Below are positions 140-36,818 of a DNA stretch of 64,000 nucleotides, in pieces. The position numbers and the translations under genes were made by a program. Below the pieces are notes generated by a model, which was given only the letters and a program-made list of their open reading frames with translations, was not told the origin of the DNA and searched no databases. The DNA comes from a virus, in IMG/VR virus record IMGVR_UViG_3300037467_000561, one strand, 5' to 3'. Within the stretch, counting starts at the first letter, position 1, and the number at the start of each line of letters is the position of its first letter.

Positions 140-1621
140 TTATAGGGAGGGGATAGGGGAGGGTTGAGTGAAAACTGCCATGGAGAATACCGGCATCACC
201 GTCTGCCTAGCAAGATTGTTGAAGGCGGAACTGGTTGCGTCTACTTGGTCGTCAACATTTTTACGCTCCCCCGAGAAAAAACAAACCTCGTCAAACCAAG
301 CCCTATTCCAGTCGCCTTTTACAATCTTAACGCACTTGTTATTAGCAACACTAGCAAAAGGGTTGAACCTTGTTACTTTATTGCTGTGAGGGTTTACACC
401 TTCTGTGCGAACATTGATTCCGTGAGATGCTAAAAACGTAACATAAAATTTATTGGCAACTTTACCTGCTTGCCCAGGATCGCAAGGAATGATTTGTGTC
501 ACATCTAACCCATCGTGAAGTGCTGTTTCCTTAATCCCTTTTAGCACACCGTCGATCTGTTTTTGAAACCTCACAACATCTTCTATGTAGAAGTTGCCAA
601 AAGCATCCTTAGACATAAGAACACCAGCAGTCCAGTCACATTTAAAACTGTTCGCCTCGTTTGGCACAGAGCTTGCTAAGTCCCATGCCCTAAATTTACC
701 CACAGGATTGATTGGAGGATGGTCTACAATTTCAAAAAGGTCTTCTGTGACCATGGAGCTTCCTAGAACCTCAGCATCCCAAGAGCCATAAAGTAGACGC
801 AACTGGTTTACGCGAGGTTGTGAAAGAAGACGACCAACATATCCAGGGTCGGTCTTTAGAAGCGCAGGGTTGTCGTAACAAGTCATCGGGCAAAATTTAA
901 ACTTCAAAGCTACGAACTCTTTTCCCCTTTCCAGCCCTTGTCCATAATTCTCATACAACTCTTCTTCGGAATCGGCCCACTTAAAATGCGAATTCTGCAC
1001 GACAAAATACCGAACTCTGTGCTCAGTCCCCGGAAGAGGTACACCTTCAGAGTCGAGGGAGTAATCCACCACTGCACGGAGCCATGACGCCTTTGACGGG
1101 TTACAACTCATCATAAGGCTTTTCTTACCAGTGTATGTTGCGCTACGAAGACGAGATAATACTGCCAAAACTTGATCTTGCTGCCATTCCGCAGCTTCGT
1201 CAATAATAAAATGAGTGCGTTCCCAACCTTGAACCTCATACAAATCTTTGGGCATCGCTTTAAAGTCAATTTCTGCGCCATTGGGAAAAACCCAAGTCCT
1301 TGCTTGCGCTTTCCACACACCTCCAAAATGCGGGTAGATTTGCTTTGACGAGCTAATAAGGTCTTTCAACATTGGATAAGTGAGACGAAGGATCATCACT
1401 TTGGCATGTTTGTCTTGAACAAACTTGGCCGCTTTCACCAACGAAAGAAAACTCTTTCCAGACCCCGCCCCGCCCCCTGTGAGGAAAAGGTCTACCTCTT
1501 CTTCCTTTAAAACCAGCCTTTGCTTTTCACTACAAGGCTGGAACGTGGGCTTTTTATCTTTTTTTACACTAGGCACTCTAACATCTCCACTAAGTCTTCT
1601 GGCCTCAAACCAAGAAAACAC
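140..1621 (-). CDS. terL: terminase large subunit
   Basis: 493 aa. Walker A FLTGGGAGSGKSF, Walker B-like HFIIDEA, C-terminal nuclease-like region. Size and motif order are typical of TerL. The start overlaps the upstream endonuclease gene by 58 nt. Confidence 0.88.
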   Translation of the reverse strand: MFSWFEARRLSGDVRVPSVKKDKKPTFQPCSEKQRLVLKEEEVDLFLTGGGAGSGKSFLSLVKAAKFVQDKHAKVMILRLTYPMLKDLISSSKQIYPHFGGVWKAQARTWVFPNGAEIDFKAMPKDLYEVQGWERTHFIIDEAAEWQQDQVLAVLSRLRSATYTGKKSLMMSCNPSKASWLRAVVDYSLDSEGVPLPGTEHRVRYFVVQNSHFKWADSEEELYENYGQGLERGKEFVALKFKFCPMTCYDNPALLKTDPGYVGRLLSQPRVNQLRLLYGSWDAEVLGSSMVTEDLFEIVDHPPINPVGKFRAWDLASSVPNEANSFKCDWTAGVLMSKDAFGNFYIEDVVRFQKQIDGVLKGIKETALHDGLDVTQIIPCDPGQAGKVANKFYVTFLASHGINVRTEGVNPHSNKVTRFNPFASVANNKCVKIVKGDWNRAWFDEVCFFSGERKNVDDQVDATSSAFNNLARQTVMPVFSMAVFTQPSPIPSL

Positions 1622-2805
1622 TCGGAGTAACCGTCAAACTTAGTCGGTGGCCTTTCATAATTCTTTCTAAGGTAAGTTAGCACAGCGCGTTCAAGCCTTG
1701 CGCACATCTCACCGCCCATTTTAAACTCTCGTACGACACTGAAAGTATCACCGTAAGACGTGCTAATATCTTTAGCTCTGGCTTTTGCAGTCTTATTGGT
1801 AATACCGACTTTCACAATATCCTCACATGAGAGTACATATACAACTCCGGTTTTAGTCTGGTCAAACCCTGTTTTAGCACAAGATGGACAGCCCCTACCT
1901 CCGAGATGCTTTTCTGGAGACTGTTTAAAAGTCTTATTGCACGCATTGCAGGTAATGTTAATCTTACGTTCCCTTGTTGTATAATCACACAAGTGATAAG
2001 TGTATTTCTCTCCATTTACCTGTTTAGCTTCTTCCACAAAAAGTGAAGCCGCCAATGTTCTGGATTTTGACCTTTCTTCGACTGCGCATTTTTTGCAACC
2101 TGATGGAGGGCGTCCATTGGAAGAATGCATGTGGTTATCAGGAGAAATTTCAAACACCCCATGCTTATGGCAACGCACTTTCACTTTAGTTTTAACACCT
2201 TTAAACTCTACAAGAGCATAGTCGTAGCGCTCGCCGTGAACTTTTTTCATAGCCTCAATAATCTCTTCTTGACTATAGTTCCAAGTGCCTTTAAGAAATT
2301 TACCAGTTTTAAGGGCCGTAAGATTAACATTCTTAACTGTACCGTCTTCAAATTCAATCTCAAAACGTGATCCTGCAATCACGGATTTTACTGTTACGGT
2401 GTGGCCTTCATGGTTCTTAAAGATGTCCCCAACAGCTACCCTTTCACATTCTTCTTGGTCCGATGCTGTGCCAACTTTAAGTTGGGAGGAGTTTGTCCAT
2501 TTGAGTTTTCCAGATTCTAGGAATTTTACTTTAATCTTCTTGGCGTGTAAGTAGTCCACCACAACACAAGGCCCACAATGGTTAGAATCAAATATATCGC
2601 CAATTTGAACACCATACAATCGAACAGAGTTATCCTTTAACTTTCCGTTCTTGATCTGTGCTGAGTTAGTTTTCTTAATAAAGCCAGTGTTCAAGAATTT
2701 TACTGTTATATCAGTGCTGTTGATATACTCTAAAACTTCTACGTTCCCGTAATTTTCTGTAGGTAGAACATCTCCCACATGAATGGATGGTGCGTTATTT
2801 CCCAT
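1564..2805 (-). CDS. free-standing homing endonuclease, T5orf172 / GIY-YIG-like C-terminal domain
   Basis: Start moved to ATG 2805 (RBS AGAGGAAAG; MGNNAPS...). Three ~33-aa N-terminal repeats (VGDVLPTENYGNVEVLEYINSTDITVKFLNTG etc.). Two Zn-ribbon modules (HKHGVFEISPDNH..GCKKC; ..GGRGCPSCAKTGF). C-terminus VVYVLSCEDIVKVGITNK...R...Y is typical of T5orf172. Confidence 0.8.
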   Translation of the reverse strand: MGNNAPSIHVGDVLPTENYGNVEVLEYINSTDITVKFLNTGFIKKTNSAQIKNGKLKDNSVRLYGVQIGDIFDSNHCGPCVVVDYLHAKKIKVKFLESGKLKWTNSSQLKVGTASDQEECERVAVGDIFKNHEGHTVTVKSVIAGSRFEIEFEDGTVKNVNLTALKTGKFLKGTWNYSQEEIIEAMKKVHGERYDYALVEFKGVKTKVKVRCHKHGVFEISPDNHMHSSNGRPPSGCKKCAVEERSKSRTLAASLFVEEAKQVNGEKYTYHLCDYTTRERKINITCNACNKTFKQSPEKHLGGRGCPSCAKTGFDQTKTGVVYVLSCEDIVKVGITNKTAKARAKDISTSYGDTFSVVREFKMGGEMCARLERAVLTYLRKNYERPPTKFDGYSECFLGLRPEDLVEMLECLV

Positions 2806-3094
2806 TTCTTTCCTCTGTACTAGGTTAATAAATGTGGCTATCTTAGGAGTACAGCCTAAGAAATGGGAGCTACCCTGTTCGCCACAAAACTGAAACAACA
2901 AAAAGCCACACAGCATCCCTGCCGTGCAGCCTCCTTTAGAATTCGGTGAGTGGGCGCCACGCTACCTTGCCCCACTTCTCTAGCGTCCATGCTGACGCCC
3001 TCAGCCTCTTGCCCGCTCTCGCGGTTATGCCCAATCGGAGCAAAGTCCCTCTAGGCAAATTTGTTACGAGAATTAGTTGGTTTCCCAACCGATG

Positions 3095-3286
3095 TCAGCC
3101 CTCGTCGGCTTTGGAAACATCGTTGACGACCTCGACTTCAGTGTTGCAACCAGCTTCTTCTTTCACCGACTCATCTTTCTTGCCGAAGATTGCATCGAAA
3201 TTGCTATAATACTTATCCCAACCAGTTCCACGTGGGCGTGATCCCTTTCCGGCGTCCGCATAGAATGTCTTAGTATCATCACTCAT
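3095..3286 (-). CDS. hypothetical protein (63 aa)
   Basis: ATG 3286 preceded by AAGGAGAAG. MSDDTKTFYADAGKGSRPRGTGWDKYY... The longer track ORF (to 3343) has no RBS. Confidence 0.5.
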   Translation of the reverse strand: MSDDTKTFYADAGKGSRPRGTGWDKYYSNFDAIFGKKDESVKEEAGCNTEVEVVNDVSKADEG

Positions 3287-3552
3287 ATCTTCTCCTTGTG
3301 TTCGTGCCGTCTTTCCGGCTGTCATCAATGAAGGGACACTCATTTATTCCCCGGCTGGGAGTGATCCACGGAACCGTAAGGTTTCTGCACTAGCTTCATC
3401 AGCCGTGGTGTTGTAAATGCCGGGCCAGATGCCCACCGCTCCACTGAATTTGTGGGCCAGCGGTCGTTATGGAAGGGAATTCCGCCCTTCTCTTAGCTCT
3501 TTCGCAGAGCCTCGTCAACCGTAAGGCTAACAATCCGCAGGTAGCAGGATTC

Positions 3553-3628
3553 TGGAGCGGAATGCCGGAAATCGAACCGGCTACTGCAACTTGGAAGGAT
3601 GCTATGTTGCCACTTACACCAATTCCGC
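3553..3628 (-). tRNA. tRNA-Gly (anticodon UCC)
   Basis: Hand-folded cloverleaf: acceptor GCGGAAU/AUUCCGC, D stem GUGU/ACAU with a GG loop, anticodon loop CUUCCAA, T stem GCCGG/CCGGC, encoded CCA. The T-loop appears to be 8 nt (UUCGAUUU), which is atypical. Confidence 0.75.
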
Positions 3629-3634
3629 TATGTG

Positions 3635-3710
3635 TGGTGCCGAATAGAGAAATCGAATCCCTGACCTTCACATTACAAGTGTGCTGCTCTACCTGCTGAG
3701 CTAATTCGGC
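3635..3710 (-). tRNA. tRNA-Thr (anticodon UGU)
   Basis: Canonical cloverleaf: acceptor GCCGAAU/AUUCGGC, D arm GCUC-AGCAGGUA-GAGC, anticodon loop CUUGUAA, T arm AGGGA-UUCGAUU-UCUCU, encoded CCA. Confidence 0.88.
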
Positions 3711-3716
3711 AAAATA

Positions 3717-3790
3717 TGGTGTGACGTTGGGTTTCGATCCCTTCCTACGAGTTTCACAGACTCGTGTGCTCCCATTACACTACCGTCACC
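3717..3790 (-). tRNA. tRNA-His-like (anticodon GUG, extra 5' G-1)
   Basis: Acceptor GUGACG(G)/(A)CGUCAC with an extra 5' G, as in tRNA-His. D arm GUGU-AAUGGGA-GCAC, anticodon arm CGAGU-CUGUGAA-ACUCG, encoded CCA. The T stem is only GGG/CCC plus A-A mismatches, so function is uncertain. Confidence 0.55.
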
Positions 3791-4028
3791 ATTGTTTTCA
3801 GGACGCCTCAACTGCCACAAAGCTGATGAGGAGGGGCACCTACCCTGTAGAGGAAGCGTCTTGAAAACGGCCTCTTATGGAAGCCGAATGCCAATTCTGA
3901 AAGAGCTAAAGGCATGCTCTATAAGCTGTTCCTTCACTAGCATGCAGAAAGCTTCTAGGAGAGGGTCTTGGCTAATTGGTGCACCTGATGTAGCCGTATT
4001 GTCAGTGCGTTCAATCTCAACAAAACCA

Positions 4029-4057
4029 ATTATACACACCTTACCGCTTCTTGTCAA
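4029..4057 (-). promoter_or_regulatory. perfect sigma70 promoter TTGACA-17-TATAAT upstream of the tRNA cluster
   Basis: rc of 4029-4057 is TTGACAagaagcggtaaggtgtgTATAAT. The -35 contains the TGA stop of the upstream ORF. Confidence 0.75.
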
Positions 4058-4425
4058 ATCTTATTAACGTTACCCATGTCAACAACAGGCACATCCCTAA
4101 ATTCTGGCGAAATGTTGTCAAAATCCAACGCTGGAGCGTCGTCATCCTCTTGCGCTGTACTACCAGCCCCTACCATGCCCCGCAACTTCACCTCTAGCAG
4201 AAGACGCTTCAACTCGTCTTCATTGACATCCTTAGCCGAGTCGGTGTAGAACTTCAGCAGCTTTTCAGCAGCAATCATACGCACACGCTCATCTTGACTA
4301 TCAAGACCCCTCTCAAGCACTTCGATAGCCTTCTTACTGATCTTCTTAAGATCACGAACAAGTTTGGCAAGCTCATGTGTCTTCTTGAACACAGCTTGCT
4401 CTTTAGTTGGTACAAGTTCACCCAT
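4054..4425 (-). CDS. hypothetical protein (123 aa), helical, acidic C-terminus
   Basis: ATG 4425 with AAGGAGG 8 nt upstream. First gene of this minus operon, upstream of terL, so small terminase is possible by position only. Confidence 0.55.
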   Translation of the reverse strand: MGELVPTKEQAVFKKTHELAKLVRDLKKISKKAIEVLERGLDSQDERVRMIAAEKLLKFYTDSAKDVNEDELKRLLLEVKLRGMVGAGSTAQEDDDAPALDFDNISPEFRDVPVVDMGNVNKI

Positions 4426-4458
4426 GTGAACACCCTCCTTAAAATTCTTAACGAGCAA

Positions 4459-4487
4459 ATCATAGCATTTGTCGCCATTCTTGTCAA
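4459..4487 (-). promoter_or_regulatory. sigma70-type promoter TTGACA-17-TATGAT
   Basis: rc reads TTGACAagaatggcgacaaatgcTATGAT. Divergent from the promoter at 4498. Confidence 0.6.
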
Positions 4488-4497
4488 TTTTAGGGGC

Positions 4498-4526
4498 TTG
4501 ACAGACAGAATTGTTGGGTGTACTAT
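4498..4526 (+). promoter_or_regulatory. sigma70-type promoter TTGACA-17-TACTAT
   Basis: TTGACAgacagaattgttgggtgTACTAT, 45 nt upstream of ATG 4571. Confidence 0.6.
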
Positions 4527-4570
4527 CCACATCACTTGCCTGTCGCAAGCAACCAAACAGGAGGATAACA

Positions 4571-4729
4571 ATGCTAAACGATGTTAAAGTGTACTTTCAC
4601 GAAGATGGTAAACTTGTTAAATACAATGTAGATAGGGTAGATTCTTACAGCGAAGCCATCTCGGTAATTCGCACACAAGTTTATGGCGTACCGCTCACAC
4701 GCGCAGTGATGGCTCTGGTGAACAAATGA
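4571..4729 (+). CDS. hypothetical protein (52 aa)
   Basis: ATG 4571 after CAGGAGGA. The track ORF's upstream extension lacks an RBS. Confidence 0.5.
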   Translation: MLNDVKVYFHEDGKLVKYNVDRVDSYSEAISVIRTQVYGVPLTRAVMALVNK

Positions 4730-4896
4730 ACGATCTTGACCACATCCTGTACGAAGTAGAGCAACAAGAGCGCAACTTTGCAGACTTTGAAGACCTACGC
4801 TTTGCAGAAATCTTCCTGACCGACAAGGAAGCAAAAAGTAAGAAAATTGCGCTCCATGTAGGGCGTACCCGTAACAAATCTAAACAACAATCTTAA
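4726..4896 (+). CDS. hypothetical protein (56 aa), below the ORF-track cutoff
   Basis: ATGA start/stop overlap with the previous gene. MNDLDHILYEVEQQERNF... ends 10 nt before the next RBS. Confidence 0.45.
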   Translation: MNDLDHILYEVEQQERNFADFEDLRFAEIFLTDKEAKSKKIALHVGRTRNKSKQQS

Positions 4897-4905
4897 GGAG
4901 AAACA

Positions 4906-5232
4906 ATGAGCGACATCATCTCAACCGAAGTTAAAGAAGGTGCTACCGAGTACAAAACTATCGTCACCCCTAATTTCTACGAAATCGTAAACGAAGTGGT
5001 GAGCCACAAAGGGTACGGCTGGGACATCGATCCTGAGCGCCCTCCGTTTTTCAGCTTCATCATGTATGAAGTGTATCTTATCCGCAATGCTAATACGATT
5101 GCTAAAGCTAAGCAGCAACTTGAGTCTGCTGAGAGTGGGCGTGATGTGATGACTAAAGAGAAACGTCAAGAAATCATGGCTAAGGCTCGTGCTGCTAAGA
5201 AGATTAACAAGGATGTGCAAGATGAAAGTTAA
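4906..5232 (+). CDS. hypothetical protein (108 aa)
   Basis: AAGGAG RBS, compact packing. Confidence 0.6.
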   Translation: MSDIISTEVKEGATEYKTIVTPNFYEIVNEVVSHKGYGWDIDPERPPFFSFIMYEVYLIRNANTIAKAKQQLESAESGRDVMTKEKRQEIMAKARAAKKINKDVQDES

Positions 5233-5443
5233 GTTTGCTAACGCTGAGGTGGATGTATGGAAGTTGCGCAAAGGCACTACGTTGATGCTTAGTGGAAGTG
5301 GAGATATTGTTCACTTGAAATCTATGGATGCCAACGTTTGTAAAAATGGGCTGAAAGTGTACGGCATTGTTTCTTCACATTACGATGGAGATGACAGGGA
5401 ATTTTCTTCTGAGTATTATGTCTGGCTCGAACCCCATGATTGA
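5222..5443 (+). CDS. hypothetical protein (73 aa)
   Basis: ATG 5222 overlaps the end of the previous gene. MKVKFANAEVDVW... Confidence 0.5.
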   Translation: MKVKFANAEVDVWKLRKGTTLMLSGSGDIVHLKSMDANVCKNGLKVYGIVSSHYDGDDREFSSEYYVWLEPHD

Positions 5444-5468
5444 CAGAAAGAAAGCCTAGTGCTATATT
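5440..5468 (+). promoter_or_regulatory. sigma70-type promoter TTGACA-17-TATATT
   Basis: TTGACAgaaagaaagcctagtgcTATATT. The TGA stop of the previous ORF lies inside the -35. Confidence 0.6.
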
Positions 5469-5526
5469 GGAGTGTCTAACATCGCTGTTGGGCATTCCTA
5501 TTAACATTTTTACAAGAGGATAATTA

Positions 5527-6603: not shown

Positions 6604-6606
6604 CAC

Positions 6607-9415: not shown

Positions 9416-10105
9416 ATGGGAAATAAAGTTATTTGCTACGCAAGGTGCAGTACGTCCGAACAATTTAAGAGTTCTCTCGGTATTGAGGCACAGATTGAAG
9501 ATATGCGGAGGTTTGCGCATCGTAACGGACTTGAGATCGTAGATATTCGCAGAGAGGTTGTGAGCGGTAAGCACGACTTAGACCGCAGGCCAGTGCTGAA
9601 ACAAGCTTTTGAAGACGCTGCAAAGATTAAAGGTTGCTCTGTACTAACGTCGAAAATCGATAGGTTATCGAGGTCGCAACTTTTCATCAATAAGTTAGTA
9701 GCTACTAATGTGAATTTCATCACCGCTGAAACAGGACTTGACTGCTCCCCGTTGGAAATTTCTCTACGCGCCGCATTTGCAGAGGAGGAAAGAAGGAAGA
9801 TCGGTGATAGGACGAAAGCAGCATTTGCCGCAAAGAAGGTTCGCGGTGAGCCTATGGGCATGCACTTGGATAAGGTTGCGGAAGCTAGGGCGAAAGCAAT
9901 CGAGCACAGTGTGATGGTAAACAAGAAAGAAGCTGACGCTTTCGCCGAGTTCATGCGAGAGAAAATCACAGACTTCGTAGACCTGAACCTCTCACTGACG
10001 CAAATGGCGGCTAGGTTGAATAAATATAAAACCCCCACACAACGCGGAGGTAAGTGGTACCCCACTACAGTCAAGAACCTAATTGATCGTCTGCAACTAA
10101 TTTGA
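9416..10105 (+). CDS. small serine recombinase (resolvase/invertase family)
   Basis: 229 aa. N-terminal VICYARCSTSEQ (catalytic Ser motif YxRxSTxxQ), ...SKIDRLSRS, C-terminal HTH-like LSLTQMAARLNKYKTPTQRGGKWYPTTVKNL. Confidence 0.85.
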   Translation: MGNKVICYARCSTSEQFKSSLGIEAQIEDMRRFAHRNGLEIVDIRREVVSGKHDLDRRPVLKQAFEDAAKIKGCSVLTSKIDRLSRSQLFINKLVATNVNFITAETGLDCSPLEISLRAAFAEEERRKIGDRTKAAFAAKKVRGEPMGMHLDKVAEARAKAIEHSVMVNKKEADAFAEFMREKITDFVDLNLSLTQMAARLNKYKTPTQRGGKWYPTTVKNLIDRLQLI

Positions 10106-10130
10106 CAGAATGTTGTTTCCGTAGTATAAT
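10102..10130 (+). promoter_or_regulatory. perfect sigma70 promoter TTGACA-17-TATAAT
   Basis: TTGACAgaatgttgtttccgtagTATAAT. The recombinase TGA stop lies inside the -35. Confidence 0.75.
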
Positions 10131-10159
10131 ACTCTCATAACCAATAATGAGAGGTGATT

Positions 10160-10378
10160 ATGGCAAACAAACAAAAATTTAGTGTCGAAGAGGCTATCCA
10201 GCTTCGTAGGCAAGGACACTCGCACCAAAGTATCGCGGATATGATGGGGTGCAGTGTCCATTGGTGTTTGAAGAACCTGAAAGGTGTGGAGAAGGGTGCA
10301 GGCGTAGAAAACGATGCTACGAAGCGCATGGCTATCGCTATTCTTGAAGAAGCTCTTGAGAAAGTGAGGGCACTGTGA
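10160..10378 (+). CDS. small HTH protein (72 aa)
   Basis: ATG 10160 after GAGAGGTG. FSVEEAIQLRRQGHSHQSIADMMGCSVHWCLKNL looks like a resolvase-type HTH. Confidence 0.6.
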   Translation: MANKQKFSVEEAIQLRRQGHSHQSIADMMGCSVHWCLKNLKGVEKGAGVENDATKRMAIAILEEALEKVRAL

Positions 10379-11514
10379 CTGATATTTATGTAGGATATCT
10401 AGCGACGAGCAACAACTTCGGCAGGTACAAAATCGGGAAGATGGATGGTGATCATGCCTGGATAGTCTTTGAAGATACAGGTAACGTAGAGCACCCTTCA
10501 ATCAAGACAATCATAGCAAATGGAGTTGTAGATTACAAAAGTCCGAAGTACTCCCTAAAGTTGAATGGTCTATACAACACGAATAACTACGGGCAAGTTA
10601 AAGTAATAAAGATCACAAACTCCAAAGAGGTTACTGTCGAATTTGTAAACACAGGTAATCGTGTTGTTGTTCAAAAGAGTGCAATCCTTGCAGGTTATAT
10701 AACTGATAAACTTGCTATAGCCATGCAGGAGCAGAAAAATTCTGAACTGCGTGCAGAAGAAAAACGTATTATAGCTGAGACAAGACGGGCAGAGAAAGCT
10801 GCCATTGAGGAATCTAATAGGCTTGTGAAAGAGGCAGCAAAGGCGGAACGAGAAGCAGCTAGAGCCGCAATCAAGTCTGTGCAAAGAACTCTTGATTCAA
10901 AAGGTGAGGTGTTCATCGGAACAGTTCACAAAGACTTGCTTGACATGGAATTTAAGGTTGTTGACAGAGTAGATGGAACAAGTCAATGGGTTGTCAAGTA
11001 TCTTGAATCTGGAAACGAATACAACTATTCAGAAAATTTAATTAGAAAGAAATCCGTGGGTGATAAGAAACGGGAGGACTACTTCGTTCTTAAAGCAAAG
11101 TATGATAAAGCTAGAGCAGCAAAGTGGTATCAAGAGAATCGAGAACATGCAATTAAGCGCGCGTGTGAATATCAAAAGTTAAATTTAGATAGGGCAAGAG
11201 TTAACAATCAGAACCGTCGTGCTCGGCGCAATGGAGCAGAAGGAAATCATACTCTTGAGGAAACAAACAGATTATTAGATGAACAAGGACATAAATGTAA
11301 TTGTTGCGGCATCGCCTTGACAGCATCCAATAAACATCTCGATCATATCTACCCTCTGGCTCTTGGCGGTACTAACTACATCTGGAATCTTCAATGGTTG
11401 TGTCAGTTTTGCAATAATAGTAAATCCGCCACTCACCCTGATGAATGGGAAATCTATAGTAAATCAGAGCAATTCCAGAGTGTCTTGAAGGCTCATGGAC
11501 AGCAGCTTCAATAG
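10375..11514 (+). CDS. HNH homing endonuclease
   Basis: 379 aa, GTG start overlapping TGA. Two N-terminal repeats (NTNNYGQVKVIKITNSKEVTVEFVNTGN) homologous to those of 1564-2805. Lys/Glu/Ala coiled coil. C-terminal HNH: CNCCG...HLDHIYPLALGGTNYIWNLQWLCQFCNNSK. Confidence 0.85.
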   Translation: MTDIYVGYLATSNNFGRYKIGKMDGDHAWIVFEDTGNVEHPSIKTIIANGVVDYKSPKYSLKLNGLYNTNNYGQVKVIKITNSKEVTVEFVNTGNRVVVQKSAILAGYITDKLAIAMQEQKNSELRAEEKRIIAETRRAEKAAIEESNRLVKEAAKAEREAARAAIKSVQRTLDSKGEVFIGTVHKDLLDMEFKVVDRVDGTSQWVVKYLESGNEYNYSENLIRKKSVGDKKREDYFVLKAKYDKARAAKWYQENREHAIKRACEYQKLNLDRARVNNQNRRARRNGAEGNHTLEETNRLLDEQGHKCNCCGIALTASNKHLDHIYPLALGGTNYIWNLQWLCQFCNNSKSATHPDEWEIYSKSEQFQSVLKAHGQQLQ

Positions 11515-17080: not shown

Positions 17081-17647
17081 ATGATTAGATCGCTAGGACG
17101 TAATGGATTGTACTGTTGCGAAGAGTTGGATGATGTTTTGTTGACCAAACTACGGAGTGAAGATTGCCCCGTAGTGTATTTCTTCTACGGTAAGGCCGAT
17201 ACTCTGCTGTACATCGGCAAGACAGATAATTTCCAGTCACGCTGGCAACAACACAATCGTTCTGAAAAGAGTATGGAAGATGTAGAGAGGGTTGCACTGC
17301 ACTTGTTTGACAGTACACCCGAGATGGTATTCTACGAGGCACAACAGATTATCCTGCAACGGCCAGCATGGAATAAACGAGGAGTTGATGACATACCGTC
17401 TAAGTTTGATATAACCCCTCTTGCTACTGTGTGGTTTGATCGGCAGTTGAGATACGATGAACACGAGCTAGACGGTATATTAGAATCAATGTCTGTCTAT
17501 TACTCTGATGAATGGTTTGCAAGGCATACGGATGAAGAAATAGAAGAGGAATTCTACAAGATTGTCAGATTAAAAAGAGGATTTGAGAAAAGGGAACGTT
17601 CTTTGGTGTTCCCTCCTTTAGATAATCTTGGGTTGCCGCAGATTTAA
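17081..17647 (+). CDS. GIY-YIG homing endonuclease
   Basis: VVYFFYGKADTLLYIGKTDNFQSRWQQHNR ... YEAQQIIL...WNK gives the GIY..YIG..R..E..N order. Confidence 0.75.
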   Translation: MIRSLGRNGLYCCEELDDVLLTKLRSEDCPVVYFFYGKADTLLYIGKTDNFQSRWQQHNRSEKSMEDVERVALHLFDSTPEMVFYEAQQIILQRPAWNKRGVDDIPSKFDITPLATVWFDRQLRYDEHELDGILESMSVYYSDEWFARHTDEEIEEEFYKIVRLKRGFEKRERSLVFPPLDNLGLPQI

Positions 17648-21223: not shown

Positions 21224-21433
21224 ATGTCTCGTTCGTTCGACTACCAGTCGGCGTCCGTCGATGCTATCGCCGTTCGCCTCAACACCGTGCAAGAGCAAGC
21301 GTACTATCGTCTTGTCACATATTACAACAAGAAAAACGACGAATCAATGCTTGCAAAACTGGCGCAAGCTAAGAAGCTTTCTAAAATTTTTAAGTTGCAA
21401 GCTGAGTATGCAAGGGAATACTGTGATGCGTGA
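21224..21433 (+). CDS. small HTH-like protein (69 aa), paralog of 18751-18960
   Basis: ATG 21224. MSRSFDYQSASVDAIAVRLNTVQEQAYYRLVTYY... Confidence 0.65.
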   Translation: MSRSFDYQSASVDAIAVRLNTVQEQAYYRLVTYYNKKNDESMLAKLAQAKKLSKIFKLQAEYAREYCDA

Positions 21434-22436
21434 GCTAAAAATAACAAGAGAGGAAGTAGAAGAAAGGATAAACAACAAAGAACCGCTGAAGTTCATACAA
21501 TGGGAAGGCGAATACTCAGGAACAAGGAAGTCAGTGGCAAAAGTAGTCTGCACGCGACACAACACCGAATTTCTATTGCGCGTAACTATGTTAACTGGAC
21601 GCACTAAGGATTTCTGCCCAGCATGTAAGAGGGATAAATTGGGCTCTAACAGTAGAATGCCTGATAGTGAGATTACATCAAAGTTCGCCGCTACTGGAGG
21701 GTTTGCCGAAGGTACTTTATTTACGAGGAGTGCGAGAGTAACACGAGGAAAGCGGCTACATTGGAACGTGTTTTGCCCAAAATGTGCTACTGACGAGTAC
21801 GCCAATGCCGGACTTTGTACGGGGTGGTTTGAGGCAGAGGTGCAATCTTTGAGGGACGGAAACCCGCCGTGCCGGTGCAGTAGCACAGCTATCAACCTAA
21901 GTCCCGCACAGTGGGATTACCGCGTGACGAAGCATCTAGAAAACAGAGAAACGGGCCTTTCTTTTGTGAGGATTGAAAAAGGCCGAACATGGACAAGAAG
22001 CAAGTTAATCGTATCTTGTAAAGAGCATGGTACTTTCGATACAAAAGTGTTCAGCGTCCTATTTATGGGGCAAGGCTGTCCATCCTGTGCAAAAACGGGG
22101 TTTGACCGAAATAAGGCGTCGCACATCTACGTACTAAAAATTGAAGGTATCCATAAGTCATTTACAGGGTATGGAATATCAAATAACCTGAAGCAAAGAA
22201 TGGCGCACCATAGAAGAACCTTAAATAAGCTGGGTCTAACGATAACAGATAGTTTCGCGCTGGCTACGAGTGGAGATGCGGCATACTTAGCGGAGTGTCA
22301 ACTAAAAGAGAAATTCCCCGTAGTTAATCAGGGAATTTCTGGATTTATGAAGGAAGCCACACTGTTTGAAAACTTCCCTATTGCTGTTGAATTTGTTAAA
22401 TCATTCTCCGAAGTAGAACTGTCGGCAGTAGGTTAA
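21426..22436 (+). CDS. free-standing homing endonuclease, T5orf172 / GIY-YIG-like
   Basis: ATG 21426 overlaps the stop of the small ORF. Zn-ribbons (CPACK, CPKC, GQGCPSCAKTGFD). C-terminus SHIYVLKIEG..FTGYGISNNLKQRMAHH is related to 1564-2805. Confidence 0.75.
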   Translation: MRELKITREEVEERINNKEPLKFIQWEGEYSGTRKSVAKVVCTRHNTEFLLRVTMLTGRTKDFCPACKRDKLGSNSRMPDSEITSKFAATGGFAEGTLFTRSARVTRGKRLHWNVFCPKCATDEYANAGLCTGWFEAEVQSLRDGNPPCRCSSTAINLSPAQWDYRVTKHLENRETGLSFVRIEKGRTWTRSKLIVSCKEHGTFDTKVFSVLFMGQGCPSCAKTGFDRNKASHIYVLKIEGIHKSFTGYGISNNLKQRMAHHRRTLNKLGLTITDSFALATSGDAAYLAECQLKEKFPVVNQGISGFMKEATLFENFPIAVEFVKSFSEVELSAVG

Positions 22437-30551: not shown

Positions 30552-30707
30552 ATGAGTGCAGAAACTATCACGATTACCGTTGCAGAGTACGAAGAACTTC
30601 TGGATGCCCAACTGAAGCTCACTCATCTTGAAGGTGCAGGAGTGGACAACTGGGATGGCTACGATTATGCGATGGAAGCATATTGGGAAGAGAAGGGTGA
30701 GGAATAA
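30552..30707 (+). CDS. hypothetical protein (51 aa), below the track cutoff
   Basis: AAGGAG RBS. TAATG coupling to the next gene. Confidence 0.45.
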   Translation: MSAETITITVAEYEELLDAQLKLTHLEGAGVDNWDGYDYAMEAYWEEKGEE

Positions 30708-31233: not shown

Positions 31234-32231
31234 TTGAAGTAATTGGTAAAGCCAACATTGTTGCACGTATCCTCGCGGACAGCATTAACGAGCAGGGCAA
31301 TCGTCTTACTACTTGGGAAGTGGAATACGCAAGAGTAGTTCACGCCGATTTGATGACTCATCGGATGTTCTCTCGTAACGCAGCAAGTAGCCGCGCAATT
31401 CCGTTCAACAAAATGGTTGAGCAGTTGCGGGGAATGCCTGTGCGGTTTGGTGCAAATCAAAGTGGCATGCAGGACAGGGGCGAAGGTCATGATGGTCTTA
31501 TTGATCTTTGGACGGAACCATCAGGGATCGGTGAGAGCGGGTACTACTCTTGCTATGAGCCAGAAGAGGCATGGGAAGCGGCGCGTATTTCGGCTACAGG
31601 GTTTGCGCGCGCATTCCAAGAAGCGGGCTACCACAAACAAGTTTTCAATCGACTAGTCGAGCCATTCCAGATGATGAAGACAATCATCTCTGCAACAGAA
31701 ACTGCAAATTTCTTCTGGCTTCGTGATGACAAGGCTGCTGATCCTACGATTGCAGAACTTGCACGAGTGATGAAAGAGGCTCAAGAGCGGAGCGTCCCGG
31801 AACTTCTGAAGGCGGGTGAGTATCATTTGCCTTATATCGACATCATGCGTGGTAACGGCAAGCGTGGTTACTCTATCCGTGTTGGTAATACGGATATGGC
31901 ACAAGTCCTCACGGCTGAACAAGCCATCAAAGTTTCTTGCGCTCGCTGTGCAGCCGTCTCCTACCGCAATGAAGGGTATGGGTTGGAGAAGAGTTTAGAA
32001 GTGTATGAGAGGCTGCTTGGCAGCGATAAAAAGCATGCTTCTGCGTTTGAACATGTCGCTACTCCTATGAAAACTCCGCATTTCTACAATGGGACCAATA
32101 TGGCTTGTTTGCCGGGAACGTGGGAGAATGGTGTCAGCCACATGGATCGTGATGGCAATCTGTGGAGCGGCAACTTCTGCGGCTGGATTCAGTATCGTAA
32201 GACGATTGATGGCGAAAATTATTCTGCTTGA
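31230..32231 (+). CDS. thyX: FAD-dependent thymidylate synthase ThyX
   Basis: 333 aa. ThyX signature THRMFSRNAASSRA (RHRxxSxxxxSxR). GTG start overlapping TGA. Confidence 0.85.
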   Translation: MIEVIGKANIVARILADSINEQGNRLTTWEVEYARVVHADLMTHRMFSRNAASSRAIPFNKMVEQLRGMPVRFGANQSGMQDRGEGHDGLIDLWTEPSGIGESGYYSCYEPEEAWEAARISATGFARAFQEAGYHKQVFNRLVEPFQMMKTIISATETANFFWLRDDKAADPTIAELARVMKEAQERSVPELLKAGEYHLPYIDIMRGNGKRGYSIRVGNTDMAQVLTAEQAIKVSCARCAAVSYRNEGYGLEKSLEVYERLLGSDKKHASAFEHVATPMKTPHFYNGTNMACLPGTWENGVSHMDRDGNLWSGNFCGWIQYRKTIDGENYSA

Positions 32232-32256
32232 CATCCCCTCATCAATTCTGTATCCT
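32228..32256 (+). promoter_or_regulatory. sigma70-type promoter TTGACA-17-TATCCT
   Basis: TTGACAtcccctcatcaattctgTATCCT. The thyX TGA lies inside the -35. The first 14 nt are identical to the promoter at 18250-18278 (-). Confidence 0.45.
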
Positions 32257-32308
32257 GTGTCTTGCGCTGAAACACAGCGCTCTTACAACCCTTAAGAAAG
32301 GCAATAAT

Positions 32309-32665
32309 ATGAAGAAAATTACTGTAGCAAAGGCTACCATCACCGCCGCATTCCTGGCTCTTTACGGTGCTGTCGCATTTGCACAAGGTCTGCCTGTCTC
32401 GGCATCTTACGAAGCCCCTGTTTCAGCATCTGCTGTCGCTGATGATGTATCCTCGCCGAGCGTGTCCGCAACGGCAACTGCACAGGATGTCAGCGCACCG
32501 TACATCGGCGCTATGGATTGCTGCACGGTGTCCAATCCTGTCTCGTCCCCACGAATGGCTGCACAGGATGATGGTAGTGATTCTCTCGCAATGGCTGGCT
32601 TGGGCTTCGGACTGTTTGGTCTGGTGGGCGTGACTAAATGGTCGCGTCGGAAGAAGCAGAAGTAA
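32309..32665 (+). CDS. exported Ser/Ala/Val-rich protein with C-terminal TM plus basic tail (sorting-signal-like)
   Basis: ATG 32309. Signal peptide KATITAAFLALYGAVAFA. Repeats PVSAS/SSPSVSAT. C-terminus SLAMAGLGFGLFGLVGVTKWSRRKKQK. Confidence 0.6.
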   Translation: MKKITVAKATITAAFLALYGAVAFAQGLPVSASYEAPVSASAVADDVSSPSVSATATAQDVSAPYIGAMDCCTVSNPVSSPRMAAQDDGSDSLAMAGLGFGLFGLVGVTKWSRRKKQK

Positions 32666-32696
32666 TGCTCTTACGAGCATGTAATCTGTAGAGGGA

Positions 32697-32720
32697 GGGG
32701 CGAAAGCCCCTTTCATTTTA
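32697..32720 (+). terminator. intrinsic terminator
   Basis: GGGGC-gaaa-GCCCC followed by TTTCATTTT. Confidence 0.75.
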
Positions 32721-32734
32721 ACTAAGGAGAAACC

Positions 32735-32971
32735 ATGAAGAAAATCATTCTGTGCGCAGCTATCGCGATCCTTGCAACGGGCTGTTCCAGCTACGATCAC
32801 AAGCTTTGCCGTGACAGTGTAGTACGCGAAGTGGGAACTCAGGAAGTGTTTGAGGTCACTCCATATCGATTTGTCGCTCGCGATTCCAAAGGCAATGTGT
32901 GGTATTACGAGACTATGAATCAGTTGGATGCTCAAGTCAGTAAGAAGCAACCCGTGTTTGGTGTGCAATGA
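32735..32971 (+). CDS. lipoprotein (78 aa)
   Basis: AAGGAG RBS. Lipobox MKKIILCAAIAILATGC. Confidence 0.7.
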   Translation: MKKIILCAAIAILATGCSSYDHKLCRDSVVREVGTQEVFEVTPYRFVARDSKGNVWYYETMNQLDAQVSKKQPVFGVQ

Positions 32972-33141
32972 CCTTCCGCCCCACACACCGTGTCATCGTT
33001 GAGAATGACGAGCACGAATATGCACTAGGTACTCTTGTGAAGCGAACGTTTTCTTTTGGAGAGTCTGTCGCTTATGCTTGGTATGTTGATGAGGAAGGTA
33101 TGTGTCAGATTATGAATATTACGGAATTGGAGGGTGTATGA
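32968..33141 (+). CDS. hypothetical protein (57 aa), below the track cutoff
   Basis: ATGA coupled at both ends. Confidence 0.4.
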   Translation: MTFRPTHRVIVENDEHEYALGTLVKRTFSFGESVAYAWYVDEEGMCQIMNITELEGV

Positions 33142-33359
33142 TTTTGTTATGTGTTCTTGTATTAGCTGTTATTTGGTTTGTTGTTGCTAGCGGCCGCCTG
33201 CTGCTTGTCAGCAAATATGTAAATCAACGCATTGAAGAAGTTTATTCTTCTCCTAATTGGTACAAGTTTGACGTTGATATCAATAAAGCGTATGACAGGG
33301 ATATCTGGGACTTGCGCAAATGGAAGTATCGCAGTTTCTTCCCGGAGGTGGTGAAATGA
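33138..33359 (+). CDS. membrane protein (73 aa)
   Basis: ATG 33138 after GGAGGG. MILLCVLVLAVIWFVVA. Confidence 0.5.
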   Translation: MILLCVLVLAVIWFVVASGRLLLVSKYVNQRIEEVYSSPNWYKFDVDINKAYDRDIWDLRKWKYRSFFPEVVK

Positions 33360-33541
33360 AATCAGTACTGTTAGCTGCTTTGGGTGCATTGTTGGGGTTC
33401 TTGATGGGCGCCTTCTATAATGCAGGCTTCGACATTGCATTGTGGTCTGACTCAAGCCGATTTGCAACATTGCTAGTAATGTCCATGCTTTCAATTCTTT
33501 TTGTGGCTGTCGATCAAATCATGAAAATAGGGGCGCCATGA
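33356..33541 (+). CDS. membrane protein (61 aa)
   Basis: ATGA coupling. Two hydrophobic segments. Confidence 0.5.
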   Translation: MKSVLLAALGALLGFLMGAFYNAGFDIALWSDSSRFATLLVMSMLSILFVAVDQIMKIGAP

Positions 33542-33693
33542 AACAAGTCTTTGAAGACCTAATTTTGTTCCTCAAGCTACAGCAGGATAATTTCTATTAC
33601 GACACTGTAGAGGGAACTGAAGAGTTTGATCCGAGTGCGCTTTGGAGTGAGATAAGGAGCTTCGCGTTGGAACTAGAGAAGCAAATTCATTAG
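33538..33693 (+). CDS. hypothetical protein (51 aa), below the track cutoff
   Basis: ATGA coupling. The stop overlaps the RBS of the primase gene. Confidence 0.4.
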   Translation: MKQVFEDLILFLKLQQDNFYYDTVEGTEEFDPSALWSEIRSFALELEKQIH

Positions 33694-33705
33694 GAGGGTT
33701 GATGA

Positions 33706-35478
33706 TTGTCTGAAATTGCTGAGAAGTATGGTATTGATCTGACTCGCGACCATAAGACTGGCTGTCCCAGGTGCATCCGCGAAGGGCGAGATAGCAGCCG
33801 TAACAATCTACATGTTTATGGAAATACAGAGTCAGCGTTTTGTTTTGCGTGCTCTTGGACGATCCCAAGTAAAGAGCACCGCGAAGCTATGGGATGGGTT
33901 GAAACAGAAGAGGAGGAAGAATTGAGCACTAAGGAAAAGCTCACGCAGGCTGAGATTGATCTTTTTAAAAGTTACACAGGAGAGTCCGGCAAGGGTGCAC
34001 GGGGTATTAGTGACAACACGTACAAGCACTATGCTGTGCGTACAAAGTATGACACTGAGACAGGTGAACCTGACACGCAATACTATCCTTATTTTGAGGA
34101 CGGCTCTCTGGCAGGTCTGAAGTTGCGGAAGCTCCCGAAGTCATTCAGTGTACAAGGGCGGGTTAATGCTAATTCTGAGTTGTTCGGGTATTTCCGGTAT
34201 AAGAATAGCAATTCCAAGATTATCTGCCTCTGCGCCGGGGAGATCGATACTATGTCTCTCAGGGATGCATTGGTCAACTATGCCAAGAATAAAGGTAGCG
34301 ATTGGGAGGAAACGCCAGTTGTGGGGTTAGGGCTTGGCGAAAGCGGTAGCAACAAAATGGTCGCCGCTCATTATGATTGGTTCGACCGTGCAGATAAAAT
34401 TATTTACTTTGCAGACCAAGATGAACCCGGTCAAGATGCTATTCCTGGCATCGTCAAAGCTCTGCCACATGGCAAAGTCTTTATTGCTAAGTTCAATGCT
34501 AAGGATGTTAATGAGCTTTTGATGAAAGGTCGCGAGAAGGAAATCATCAATGCCTTCTTCTCTGCATCTAAATACGTCCCTCCTGGCCTCGTTGGCAGCA
34601 GTCAGATGTACGACAAGATTGTTGAGGCCGCGAAGGCTCCGAAAGTACCATTCCCACCATTTATGCGGGAATTGAACGACATGACAGGTGGTGGCATGGA
34701 CCTGAAGACGGCTGTGGCAATCTCTGCATCTACTGGCTTGGCGAAAAGTACGCTGATTAATGCCGCTGTTTATTTCTGGCTTTTCAACAGCACCTATAAG
34801 ATTGGTGCCATTTCTATGGAGCAGTCTGCTGCACAGTATGGTGAGCTTATGCTTTCAACTCACTGTGGCCGTAAGATCGGTAAGATGCTACCAGAAGAGA
34901 AGCTGGAGTACCTGATGAGTGAGTATGTTCAGACGAAGCAGCGAGAGCTATTCTACAACGAGGATGGTTCCGACCGTTGGGTTGTTCTCGATGAGCGCGA
35001 CAACTCTTTGGAAGCTATGAAGGCTAAAATTCTTGAGCTTATTGTGGCTTGTGGTTGTCAGATTTTGGTGCTGGATACACTGTCGGACATGTTGGACGCA
35101 ACCACCGTGGAAGAACAACAGGACTTCACCAAGTGGATGAAGCAGATTCTCAACAAGTACGACGTGTTGATCCTGTTGATTTGCCATCAGCGCAAGGCAG
35201 CGAGTGGGCAGAAAGACGGCAGTAAAGGTGCGATGGGGTCTGAATCGGATATTCAAGGTTCCTCGACAATCGTAAAAAGTGTGGCGCTAAATCTTATGCT
35301 GTCCCGCGATAAGCTTGCTGAAGATGTGCTGACACGCAATACCACGATTGTCGCTTTGACCAAGAACCGCACAGGTTCGGAAACTTCCAACGAAGCTTGC
35401 AAAATTTACTACGACGCTGAGACTCACAGTTTACATTCACTGCAAGATTGGTTGGAGAAGAACCCTAACCAGTTCTAA
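33706..35478 (+). CDS. bifunctional DNA primase / DnaB-family helicase (T7 gp4-like)
   Basis: 590 aa, TTG start 8 nt after GGAGG. Zn finger CPRC...CFAC. TOPRIM-like CAGEIDTMS...FADQDEPGQDA. Helicase Walker A SASTGLAKST and Walker B ILVLDTLSD. Confidence 0.85.
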   Translation: MSEIAEKYGIDLTRDHKTGCPRCIREGRDSSRNNLHVYGNTESAFCFACSWTIPSKEHREAMGWVETEEEEELSTKEKLTQAEIDLFKSYTGESGKGARGISDNTYKHYAVRTKYDTETGEPDTQYYPYFEDGSLAGLKLRKLPKSFSVQGRVNANSELFGYFRYKNSNSKIICLCAGEIDTMSLRDALVNYAKNKGSDWEETPVVGLGLGESGSNKMVAAHYDWFDRADKIIYFADQDEPGQDAIPGIVKALPHGKVFIAKFNAKDVNELLMKGREKEIINAFFSASKYVPPGLVGSSQMYDKIVEAAKAPKVPFPPFMRELNDMTGGGMDLKTAVAISASTGLAKSTLINAAVYFWLFNSTYKIGAISMEQSAAQYGELMLSTHCGRKIGKMLPEEKLEYLMSEYVQTKQRELFYNEDGSDRWVVLDERDNSLEAMKAKILELIVACGCQILVLDTLSDMLDATTVEEQQDFTKWMKQILNKYDVLILLICHQRKAASGQKDGSKGAMGSESDIQGSSTIVKSVALNLMLSRDKLAEDVLTRNTTIVALTKNRTGSETSNEACKIYYDAETHSLHSLQDWLEKNPNQF

Positions 35479-35481
35479 GAT

Positions 35482-35510
35482 TTGACAAGAAGGTGGTCTT
35501 ACTGTATAAT
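35482..35510 (+). promoter_or_regulatory. perfect sigma70 promoter TTGACA-17-TATAAT
   Basis: TTGACAagaaggtggtcttactgTATAAT, 4 nt after the primase-helicase stop. Confidence 0.75.
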
Positions 35511-35540
35511 AGGTTTTTAAACAGAGAGAATAACAATATT

Positions 35541-36818
35541 ATGCAGAAGCCACCTAGCGTGAAAGTAGGAGATAAGTTTACCAACAAATCTGGTGACGTA
35601 GTAACAATTGTAGAATACGTCACCTCGAAAAAGATCACAATCGAGTACGAGGACGGTGTAAGGGTAGTGGCAAGACAAGGCAACTTGAACAGAGGGGCGT
35701 TCAAACATCCGACGAAGGGTAAGATTTTTGTGGGTGACAAATTTCCATCTGTTGACGGGGATATTGTAGAAGTTTTGGAGTATAACTCTTGCACAAATGT
35801 CTTAGTACGTTGGCCTGACGGGGAGGTATCAAAAACATACGCTGATATCCTCAAAGAAGGTAAATTGAAGCACCCCACTCGCGGTAAGATTTTTGTTGGT
35901 GATGTGTTCAAAACTAACAACGGGCATACTGTTACGGTAAAAGAATACATTGATGCCTGGAATGTTCGTGTCGTGTTTGAAGATGGTGAAGAAACTACGG
36001 TTCAGGCATCGAATCTTCGCAAGGGTGTAGTTGGACATCCTAAGTCTACGCTGCAAGTAGGTGAGAGGTTCGTCACGAAAAGTGGCTGGCCGTACACTGT
36101 TGTTGAGTACCGTAATGCGTGGGACGTTACGGTAGAATTTGAAGACGGATCGAGGCAGACAGCCTCCGCGCATGCTGCAAGGAATGGCGCCATCAAGCCA
36201 CAGAATCAGCCTAGCGTAGAGGGTATTGGTTATCTTGGCATCGGTCGATTTACTAGTGGCCTTCGTGAAAGTGGTGAAAAAGCAGATGAGTGCATTTATG
36301 GTTTCTGGATTAGGATGTTTAGTCGCTGCTACAATCCATACGAGTTGAACAAGCCACGTAACGCGCGTTACCGTGACATTCATATCGCAAAGGAGTGGCA
36401 CAACTTTCAAAACTTTGCCGAATGGGCATATCAACAGCCTTACGCATTTGCTGACGATGCTGAGCTTGATAAGGACTTGTTAAGCAACGGTGTAAAAATG
36501 TACTCGCCGGAAACTTGCACAATCGTACCACAAGAAATTAATCTTTTCTTGCTAGAACAAGACCGAGGAGAGTATTATCGTGGCGTGAATGTTATCAAGC
36601 CTAAGTGCCCAAACGCAAAGGTTGGATATGTTGCTAGAACTTGCACTGACAAGGGACGAGAATATCTTGGGTACTATAATACGCCAGAAGAGGCATTCTA
36701 CGCATACAAAGCCCGCAAGGAGCAATACGCCAAAGATCTTGCAGAAAAGTGGCGGGATAAGATTGACCCCCCCGCTTACGAAGCATTGATGAACTACACA
36801 GTAGAAATTACCGATTGA
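35541..36818 (+). CDS. free-standing homing endonuclease-like protein (4 N-terminal repeats, degenerate HNH_3-like core, AP2-like C-terminus)
   Basis: ATG 35541, downstream of the promoter. Four repeats VGD(K/V)F..(S/N)G..V(T/E)(I/V).EY......V.(F/Y)EDG. ELDKDLL...NLFL sits where HNH_3 has DH...N. YRGVN...GYVAR...REYLGYYNTPEEAFYAYKARKE is AP2-like. Confidence 0.65.
   Translation: MQKPPSVKVGDKFTNKSGDVVTIVEYVTSKKITIEYEDGVRVVARQGNLNRGAFKHPTKGKIFVGDKFPSVDGDIVEVLEYNSCTNVLVRWPDGEVSKTYADILKEGKLKHPTRGKIFVGDVFKTNNGHTVTVKEYIDAWNVRVVFEDGEETTVQASNLRKGVVGHPKSTLQVGERFVTKSGWPYTVVEYRNAWDVTVEFEDGSRQTASAHAARNGAIKPQNQPSVEGIGYLGIGRFTSGLRESGEKADECIYGFWIRMFSRCYNPYELNKPRNARYRDIHIAKEWHNFQNFAEWAYQQPYAFADDAELDKDLLSNGVKMYSPETCTIVPQEINLFLLEQDRGEYYRGVNVIKPKCPNAKVGYVARTCTDKGREYLGYYNTPEEAFYAYKARKEQYAKDLAEKWRDKIDPPAYEALMNYTVEITD

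Follow-up and report, generated by a model that had tools for sequence, protein, structure and literature searches.

Three genes of one phage carry the same repeat module

The 64,000-nt stretch of viral DNA recorded in IMG/VR as IMGVR_UViG_3300037467_000561, called the window here in its whole length, belongs to a phage genome of roughly 90 kb. Three of its genes, which we name A, B, and C (Table 1), encode endonuclease-like proteins with copies of one and the same repeat in their N-terminal parts, and it is this repeat module, its nuclease partners, and its possible role in DNA targeting that we describe. A lies upstream of the large terminase gene and C between the primase/helicase and DNA polymerase genes. 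A near-identity DNA search of 50,697 deposited phage records returned zero close matches to the window. Its large terminase shares 39% identity with the terminases of Pseudomonas phages from the phiPsa374/REC group, and the near relatives of the window itself are metagenomic viral contigs only, of 81–90 kb.

A first-pass annotation, made from the sequence alone, had proposed that one repeat is common to the three proteins, and this was borne out by 1) BLASTP with composition correction, which aligns A with C at E 2e-14, A with B at E 1.7e-6, and B with C at E 0.003, 2) hidden Markov models (HMMs) built with one protein left out, where a model trained on C recovers all A units, a model trained on A recovers all C units, and a model of A and C together finds the second B unit at E 3e-7 among 801 six-frame open reading frames (ORFs), and 3) an HMM for which 1,398 units were taken from database proteins only, the window being excluded. 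In this last and strictest test, the units of A were found at 1e-15, 5e-11, and 1e-11, the four units of C at 4e-16 to 9e-19, and amino acids (aa) 67–110 of B, within its unit 2, at 4e-9; in all other reading frames of the window the best remaining E was 0.09, with no further match. These results show that the repeat is real and that its units in the three proteins are homologous. An artefact of chance or composition has next to no probability as an explanation. The units are indeed short and β-rich, with a simple hydrophobic pattern, and two further candidate units in B are not significant, but a window-free model reaches E values down to 1e-19, the remaining frames of the window all stay at or above 0.09, and 3,082 database families carry the unit. 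The window-free scores rule out chance similarity for A, C, and B unit 2.

The extent of the module differs from the ~33 aa originally given, which cover the conserved core alone. The period is 54–58 aa, with a core of 48 aa, and the family consensus reads VGE.f..NNG..mTIIeYRn..DIDVQFEDGTIV...Y..FK.G.IKH, then P.

The unit is predicted to be an SH3-like small β-barrel

Structure prediction, one of the checks that the first-pass annotation had suggested, points to a generic fold. An AlphaFold model of C made with 63 homologues has a mean pLDDT (per-residue confidence) of 89.4 and a pTM (global confidence) of 0.66, and a single-sequence model already places the repeat region at pLDDT 70–86. In the model of C each unit consists of a short strand, a long strand, two further strands, and a short helix (in unit 1, strands at residues 12–14, 20–28, 31–36, and 41–44 and a helix at 46–51). 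The top Foldseek matches in the PDB, with probabilities of 0.98–1.0, include the KOW arrays of Spt5 and Tudor domains in tandem or triple form from SETDB1, Spindlin1, BAHCC1, and 53BP1. The model suggests a small SH3-like β-barrel of the Tudor/KOW kind, of ~55 residues, for the unit, a reading to which its weak, sub-threshold Pfam echoes (Tudor_3, YajC, SH3-C_UBE2O, eIF-1a, and DUF2187) also point. Its conserved aromatic residues (Y18, F28, and F41) are consistent with a hydrophobic core.

Like the arrays predicted here, Spt5 KOW1–5, Spindlin1, SETDB1, 53BP1, and BAHCC1 consist of small barrels in tandem joined by flexible linkers, and they are the high-probability structural matches to the predicted array. 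Unlike these arrays, they come from chromatin or transcription proteins of eukaryotes, with methylated peptides, RNA polymerase, or nucleic acid as ligands. No significant sequence match links them to the unit, and an aromatic cage finds no support in it. The proteins of the window score 12–13 bits with the Tudor_3 model, below its cut-off of 25.8, no KOW family appeared in any Pfam scan, NUMOD1, NUMOD3, and NUMOD4 gave no match in A, B, C, or 20 family members, and the best hit in a PDB sequence search with the unit profile was at a nonsignificant E of 0.015.

A distant relative may exist in phage T4. Residues 25–56 of T4 gp30.7 (L020:9488-9853) align in register with the core of the unit (hhalign E 7.7e-4, probability 25%), which hints that gp30.7 contains one distant unit, although this 121-aa protein, unlike the arrays here, would have it in single copy. 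With the corresponding Pfam family, PF06919 (cut-off 27 bits), the window proteins stay below threshold (C scores 15.9), and multi-unit members of the repeat family reach or exceed the cut-off only by summing weak stretches, none of which passes alone. Besides gp30.7, we count DUF5780, DUF6763, and DUF2187 among the nearest known parallels.

The arrays precede three different nuclease architectures

The first-pass description of A as three copies of the repeat with a T5orf172 core proved correct. In this protein, the start of which (MGNNAPS) is shared with its 413-aa orthologues, three barrel units are followed by zinc-ribbon modules and then by the T5orf172 domain. That domain scores 26.7 bits with PF10544 against a cut-off of 20 when aa 320–410 are scanned alone, a full-length scan having missed it. 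The zinc region has CxxC pairs and stays under the Pfam thresholds (CapR 17.5 bits against 24.2, DUF723 20.1 against 20.9, and DUF4379 18.6 against 24.5), and it is homologous to the zinc region of another gene of the window, at 21261–22436, where CapR matches at 4.8e-16 (59 bits). This second A-like gene of the CapR/phrog_681 type has no barrel units.

For B, the classical HNH core was confirmed, with 41.6 bits for HNH_5 (PF14279) against a cut-off of 27.5, 30.3 bits for HNH (PF01844) against 21.4, and CxxC pairs at aa 308 and 343. The count of two copies was not: one unit is significant, and the candidates on either side of it fall short of significance, with hhalign E values of 0.22 and 0.06 and HMM scores of ~0. 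When B was used as a tblastn query, HNH endonucleases of Vibrio and Acinetobacter phages matched over the stretch of unit 2 only. After the supported unit comes a stretch of ~60 residues rich in Ala, Glu, Lys, and Arg (aa 113–175; 10711–10899, + strand), which by its appearance could form a long helix or a coiled coil; related phage genes carry the annotation "coil containing protein".

C had been described as four copies with a degenerate HNH_3-like region and an AP2-like tail, and of these the four copies and the tail hold. The tail is supported as AP2-like by a profile match to WRI1 and by the topology of its model (strands at 349–352, 362–369, and 372–379, and a helix at 382–403), which fits AP2. 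C itself has no Pfam match to AP2 (PF00847), which does match the homologue P0264 and a 199-aa relative in contig L007. Kinship of the central region with HNH_3 (PF13392) is not supported: there is no Pfam match, and hhalign against the window's own HNH_3-AP2 protein gives E 0.33. In the model this region contains a ββα element (strands at 307–310 and 327–330, helix at 331–337), with the family-invariant residues K311, D312, and N334 placed where HNH residues would be and K311 replacing the histidine. It is possible, judging from the model, that it is a degenerate ββα-metal core. An identical 425-aa product is predicted on contigs as long as 89.5 kb.

Table 1. Genes A, B, and C with their parts, and further homing-type nucleases of the window
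Feature	Position	Strand	Evidence or remark
Gene A, free-standing T5orf172-type homing endonuclease, 413 aa	1564..2805	-	phrog_681 E 1e-46; orthologues P0035, L010
A unit 1 (aa 7-58)	2632..2787	-	database-only HMM E 1.1e-15
A unit 2 (aa 65-115)	2461..2613	-	database-only HMM E 4.6e-11
A unit 3 (aa 122-173)	2287..2442	-	database-only HMM E 1.1e-11
A CapR/DUF723/DUF4379-like treble-clef zinc-ribbon modules, CxxC pairs	1849..2280	-	sub-threshold Pfam; homology to 21261-22436
A T5orf172 catalytic domain (GIY-YIG clan)	1576..1848	-	PF10544 E 8.1e-6
Gene B, HNH homing-type endonuclease, 379 aa	10375..11514	+	97% identical copy in IMG/VR contig L006
B candidate unit 1 (aa 3-56), not significant	10381..10542	+	hhalign E 0.22, in register; HMM score ~0
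B unit 2 (aa 60-113)	10552..10713	+	database-only HMM E 3.9e-9; sole statistically supported B unit
B candidate unit 3 (aa 177-230), not significant	10903..11064	+	hhalign E 0.06, in register; HMM score ~0
B HNH catalytic motif with CxxC...CxxC (aa 308-357)	11296..11445	+	HNH_5 E 1.2e-10, HNH E 4.8e-7
Gene C, 425 aa	35541..36818	+	4 barrel units, central ββα region, AP2-like tail
C unit 1 (aa 6-57)	35556..35711	+	database-only HMM E 3.9e-16
C unit 2 (aa 61-112)	35721..35876	+	database-only HMM E 3.7e-15
C unit 3 (aa 116-167)	35886..36041	+	database-only HMM E 1.2e-18
C unit 4 (aa 170-221)	36048..36203	+	database-only HMM E 8.7e-19
C central region, putative degenerate ββα-metal nuclease core	36204..36575	+	PHROG "HNH endonuclease" families 953, 374, 2081
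C AP2-like tail, three strands and helix	36576..36749	+	profile vs WRI1 AP2 E 0.0025
GIY-YIG gene	17081..17647
CapR/phrog_681 gene	21261..22436	+
HNH_3-AP2 gene	41119..41733
phrog_1985 HNH gene	46054..46689
Ribonucleotide reductase large subunit gene, interrupted by LAGLIDADG_3 intein	50913..53642	+

The module is widespread and has diverse partners

A profile search of databases, another check that had been suggested, showed how common the unit is. An exhaustive search of 1.84 billion representatives returned 3,082 proteins at E<=1e-3, 1,080 of them at E<=1e-10. A single protein has as many as 13 matched stretches. Relatives were found by this search and by a full-length C query; a word-indexed homology search with the unit alignment, or with the C array alone, gave zero matches.

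We classified the partners of the module in the best 150 of the 3,082 proteins. In 65 of these, units flank a central nuclease of ~150 aa resembling Vsr, DUF559, DUF2726, or MTES_1575, and 51 are repeat-only, with no other segment of at least 70 aa. The C-terminus is of the C type in 10; GIY-YIG, A-type (zinc ribbons and T5orf172), and TniQ partners occur in three proteins each; T5orf172 is joined directly in two, including g165 of the Yersinia jumbo phage fHe-Yen9-04; and a ResIII helicase and an HNH_3 partner occur once each. Across the family, the nuclease or targeting architectures with which the module is combined number at least six. The fusions to TniQ domains and to a 1,161-aa ResIII helicase protein (P0006, P0095, P0129, and P0121) extend the range beyond nucleases. 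In Tn7-like transposons it is the TniQ proteins that select the target, which fits a DNA-targeting role of the module.

Among deposited phages, the module occurs in, for example, Vibrio phages Helene 12B3 and 1.187.O, Edwardsiella phage ET-ABTNL-9, Psychrobacter phage D'Alembert, and Yersinia jumbo phages. The annotations of the genes in all these records read HNH endonuclease, coil containing protein, or hypothetical protein. A bacterial scan covering one genome per species, with a 10-unit alignment as the query, found 37 loci (L021–L057), chiefly in gut Bacillota such as Holdemanella biformis DSM 3989 (L034), with arrays of up to 10 units. In these gut Bacillota, up to 10 units surround a Vsr-like nuclease, and there are often consecutive repeat-bearing ORFs, as in L025 and L023.

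Neither Pfam nor NCBIfam has a model for the unit, PADLOC has none either and gave no defence-system membership, the module does not appear in PHROG annotations, and the searchable literature on SH3/Tudor-type repeats in homing endonucleases and on gp30.7, DUF5780, DUF6763, and DUF2187 does not describe the module. It therefore appears, on these searches, to be undescribed so far. A profile of the unit would already be of practical use in annotation, where thousands of proteins that now lack a label could be marked as likely mobile nucleases.

Genes and arrays vary between conserved neighbours

At the locus upstream of the terminase gene, relatives of the phage show several arrangements: 1) an orthologue of A at 71% identity with three units in L010 (terminase identity 93%), 2) a 479-aa version of A, also with three units, in L016, 3) zinc-ribbon and T5orf172 genes without units in L012 (329 aa), L013 and L014 (259 aa), and L018 (266 aa), and 4) no A-like gene in L011 and L015. 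The same zinc-ribbon/T5orf172 core thus occurs at this locus with or without the array, so that the array behaves as a separable module and, as judged from these comparisons, is an optional addition to a conserved core.

At the C locus, the primase/helicase and DNA polymerase genes abut in L007, where C is absent; in the window they are separated by ~3.7 kb (35541–39211), with C first and then five small genes. This insert may be an island formed by a homing endonuclease gene (HEG) and its cargo. For one gene of it, 37451–38056, a weak precomputed match to Gad2 was not reproduced by a Pfam scan. L007 has its 199-aa C-type/AP2 gene, without repeats, after the polymerase gene, and an Edwardsiella phage has a two-unit relative of C at the primase/polymerase junction. 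By their presence or absence between conserved genes, A and C qualify as probable free-standing homing endonuclease genes. For B, L006 (97% identical) was the only relative found. GC content is lower in A (40.7%) and B (40.6%) than in the window (46.2%), a further hallmark of such genes.

The first-pass annotation had also suggested that the module was shuffled among nucleases within this single genome. That three unrelated nuclease architectures share it stands, while the shuffling does not. Recent copying of the array among A, B, and C would be suggested by the presence of three module genes within one 64-kb window, and recombination between HEGs is documented in related Vibrio phages (PMC10448857), but we find it very improbable. 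The units of the three proteins are 11–44% identical in amino acid sequence, their genes have no DNA similarity beyond matches of 14–20 nt, which are at chance level, and each has orthologues of the same architecture elsewhere; for A these are P0035 and L010, and for C there are more than 2,500 homologues. The low unit identity and absent DNA similarity reject a recent exchange, and the orthologues suggest that the combinations are old and were acquired separately. The arrays would be old too, since each of the four unit positions in C keeps its own conserved signature across 63 C-family sequences.

A possible role of the arrays in DNA targeting

We propose that A, B, and C are three unrelated free-standing homing endonuclease genes, with cores that would be of T5orf172/zinc-ribbon type, classical HNH type, and degenerate ββα type with an AP2-like tail, respectively, and that their N-terminal units, three in A, at least one in B, and four in C, are all one barrel domain of ~55 residues. 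In tandem, the units would form a "beads-on-a-string" region that places the catalytic domain, either by binding the extended DNA target or by anchoring the enzyme next to that target. Genomes without the gene would then be cut by the enzyme, and repair would copy the gene in. Over evolutionary time the module would have been joined to many nuclease cores through domain recombination, and the three genes of this phage would have gained it independently. A DNA-targeting or anchoring role for the array is, in our judgement, probable rather than assured. We infer DNA binding from the architecture alone, and target specificity and nuclease activity are ascribed to these proteins with the same reserve; the strongest argument is that DNA targeting is the only evident need common to the partners.

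Several aspects of this proposal have precedents. The concept of NUMOD modules reportedly goes back to Sitbon and Pietrokovski in 2003. Binding regions built like beads on a string are the accepted picture for phage GIY-YIG and HNH endonucleases (PMC2988022) and also for T5orf172 enzymes with their repeated zinc fingers, and this much is already known. As here, I-TevI, I-HmuI, and the Seg and Mob enzymes have small, independently folded modules beside the catalytic domain, modules are common to different nuclease families, and free-standing genes are flanked by conserved genes of the phage (PMC2988022). Helix-turn-helix domains, minor-groove helices, and zinc fingers make up the known repertoire of interchangeable modules, whereas the module here is a predicted all-β barrel of ~55 aa in tandem. 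It appears to be a new and abundant member of that repertoire, and its more than 3,000 sequence clusters come from marine phages and gut Bacillota.

A close parallel to A is offered by the T5orf172 homing endonucleases with repeated CapR/DUF723/DUF4379 zinc-finger domains, for which domain swapping between HEGs was described (Barth, Dunham and Seed 2023, PMC10448857). Like A, these adjoin essential genes such as the terminase, they occur in the same Vibrio phage lineages as our module (Helene and 1.187), and A resembles them in carrying CapR/DUF723/DUF4379-like zinc modules itself. That study describes zinc-finger modules and RepA_N only; the barrel has a different predicted fold, stands ahead of the zinc modules in A, and has HNH, GIY-YIG, Vsr-like, and TniQ partners as well.

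A number of observations weigh against DNA targeting by the array. The ligands of SH3, Tudor, and KOW barrels are more often proteins or peptides, and the structural matches themselves have low TM-scores (0.1–0.3), with β-propeller proteins among the same top matches. The units are not basic: averaged over 1,398 units, the net charge is +0.12, and isoelectric points of 8.4–9.0 were calculated for the arrays, so that electrostatics are uninformative as support for DNA binding. There are other plausible DNA-binding parts in A (zinc ribbons) and C (AP2). The core of C has zero matches to Pfam nuclease models and lacks the HNH histidine, and repeat-only proteins, which may be fragments or a sign of a nuclease-independent role, make up about one third of the top matches. 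Hpy99I, the one solved ββα-metal nuclease with an N-terminal SH3 barrel, is also instructive: as in our proteins, a barrel of ~53 residues is N-terminal to an HNH-type nuclease, where it is required for activity, but the recognized bases are untouched by it (PMC2699513). Unlike here, that barrel is in single copy, and no sequence relationship to the unit was detected.

The units could accordingly be protein–protein adaptors, oligomerization or solubility modules, or a source of nonspecific affinity, with specificity coming from the zinc ribbons in A, the AP2 tail in C, and the HNH-proximal region in B. A fold class that is mainly protein- or peptide-binding, as its Tudor and KOW matches indicate, the neutral charge of the units, the array-free relatives at the A locus, and the barrel of Hpy99I, needed for activity and solubility yet far from the recognized bases (PMC2699513), would all suit this explanation. 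We consider it unlikely, if deserving of weight, since the partners comprise TniQ target selectors and nucleases from five or more unrelated folds, with DNA targeting as their sole evident shared need, since arrays of 5–13 units are hard to account for in this way, and since each of the four positions in the C family keeps a signature of its own. Recognition of single-stranded nucleic acid, RNA, a DNA structure, or modified bases, which would direct the nucleases to a class of substrate rather than to a site, strikes us as quite improbable. Small barrels of the KOW, Tudor, and OB-like kinds do include binders of single-stranded nucleic acid and RNA, there are the weak Pfam echoes of eIF-1a and S1-like barrels, and the surface is neutral, but nothing specific speaks for it, and the classical placement of free-standing HEGs near essential genes, with presence/absence polymorphism, fits site-directed homing.

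Under the DNA-targeting reading that we favour, a more specific version can be imagined, in which each unit reads a few base pairs through its variable positions (4–9, 11–12, 19–22, and 32–40) and 3–13 units spell out a long target for the fused nuclease, TniQ, or helicase. This is a long shot. If true, it would amount to a natural, recombinable targeting system with a logic like that of zinc-finger or TALE arrays on an SH3-like fold. If the arrays bind DNA in any form, they would represent tandem DNA-recognition domains of a new class. This would account for the way in which many "hypothetical" phage nucleases locate their sites, and it could be engineered.

Other homing nucleases and neighbouring genes

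Eight homing-type nucleases were confirmed in the window (Table 1), where the first-pass annotation had counted at least nine and called the load very high. By an estimate from coordinates, the eight occupy about 12% of the window. For comparison, T4 has 15 homing endonuclease genes, which make up 11% of its coding potential (PMC2988022). The load of the window is high but comparable to that of T4 and hence not unprecedented.

Directly upstream of B (9416–10378, + strand) are genes for a serine recombinase, with matches to Resolvase (E 4e-23) and Recombinase, and for a helix-turn-helix protein of 74 aa, and the trio of recombinase, helix-turn-helix protein, and B is kept in the 97% relative L006. 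The terminase ORF (140–1621, − strand), if begun at the GTG at 1621, shares 58 nt with the 3′ end of A; its start is probably ~15 codons downstream of that GTG, since the terminases of relatives are 472–478 aa long. Between A and the genes upstream of it lies a cluster of three tRNA genes (3553–3789, − strand), for Gly(tcc), Thr(tgt), and His(gtg).

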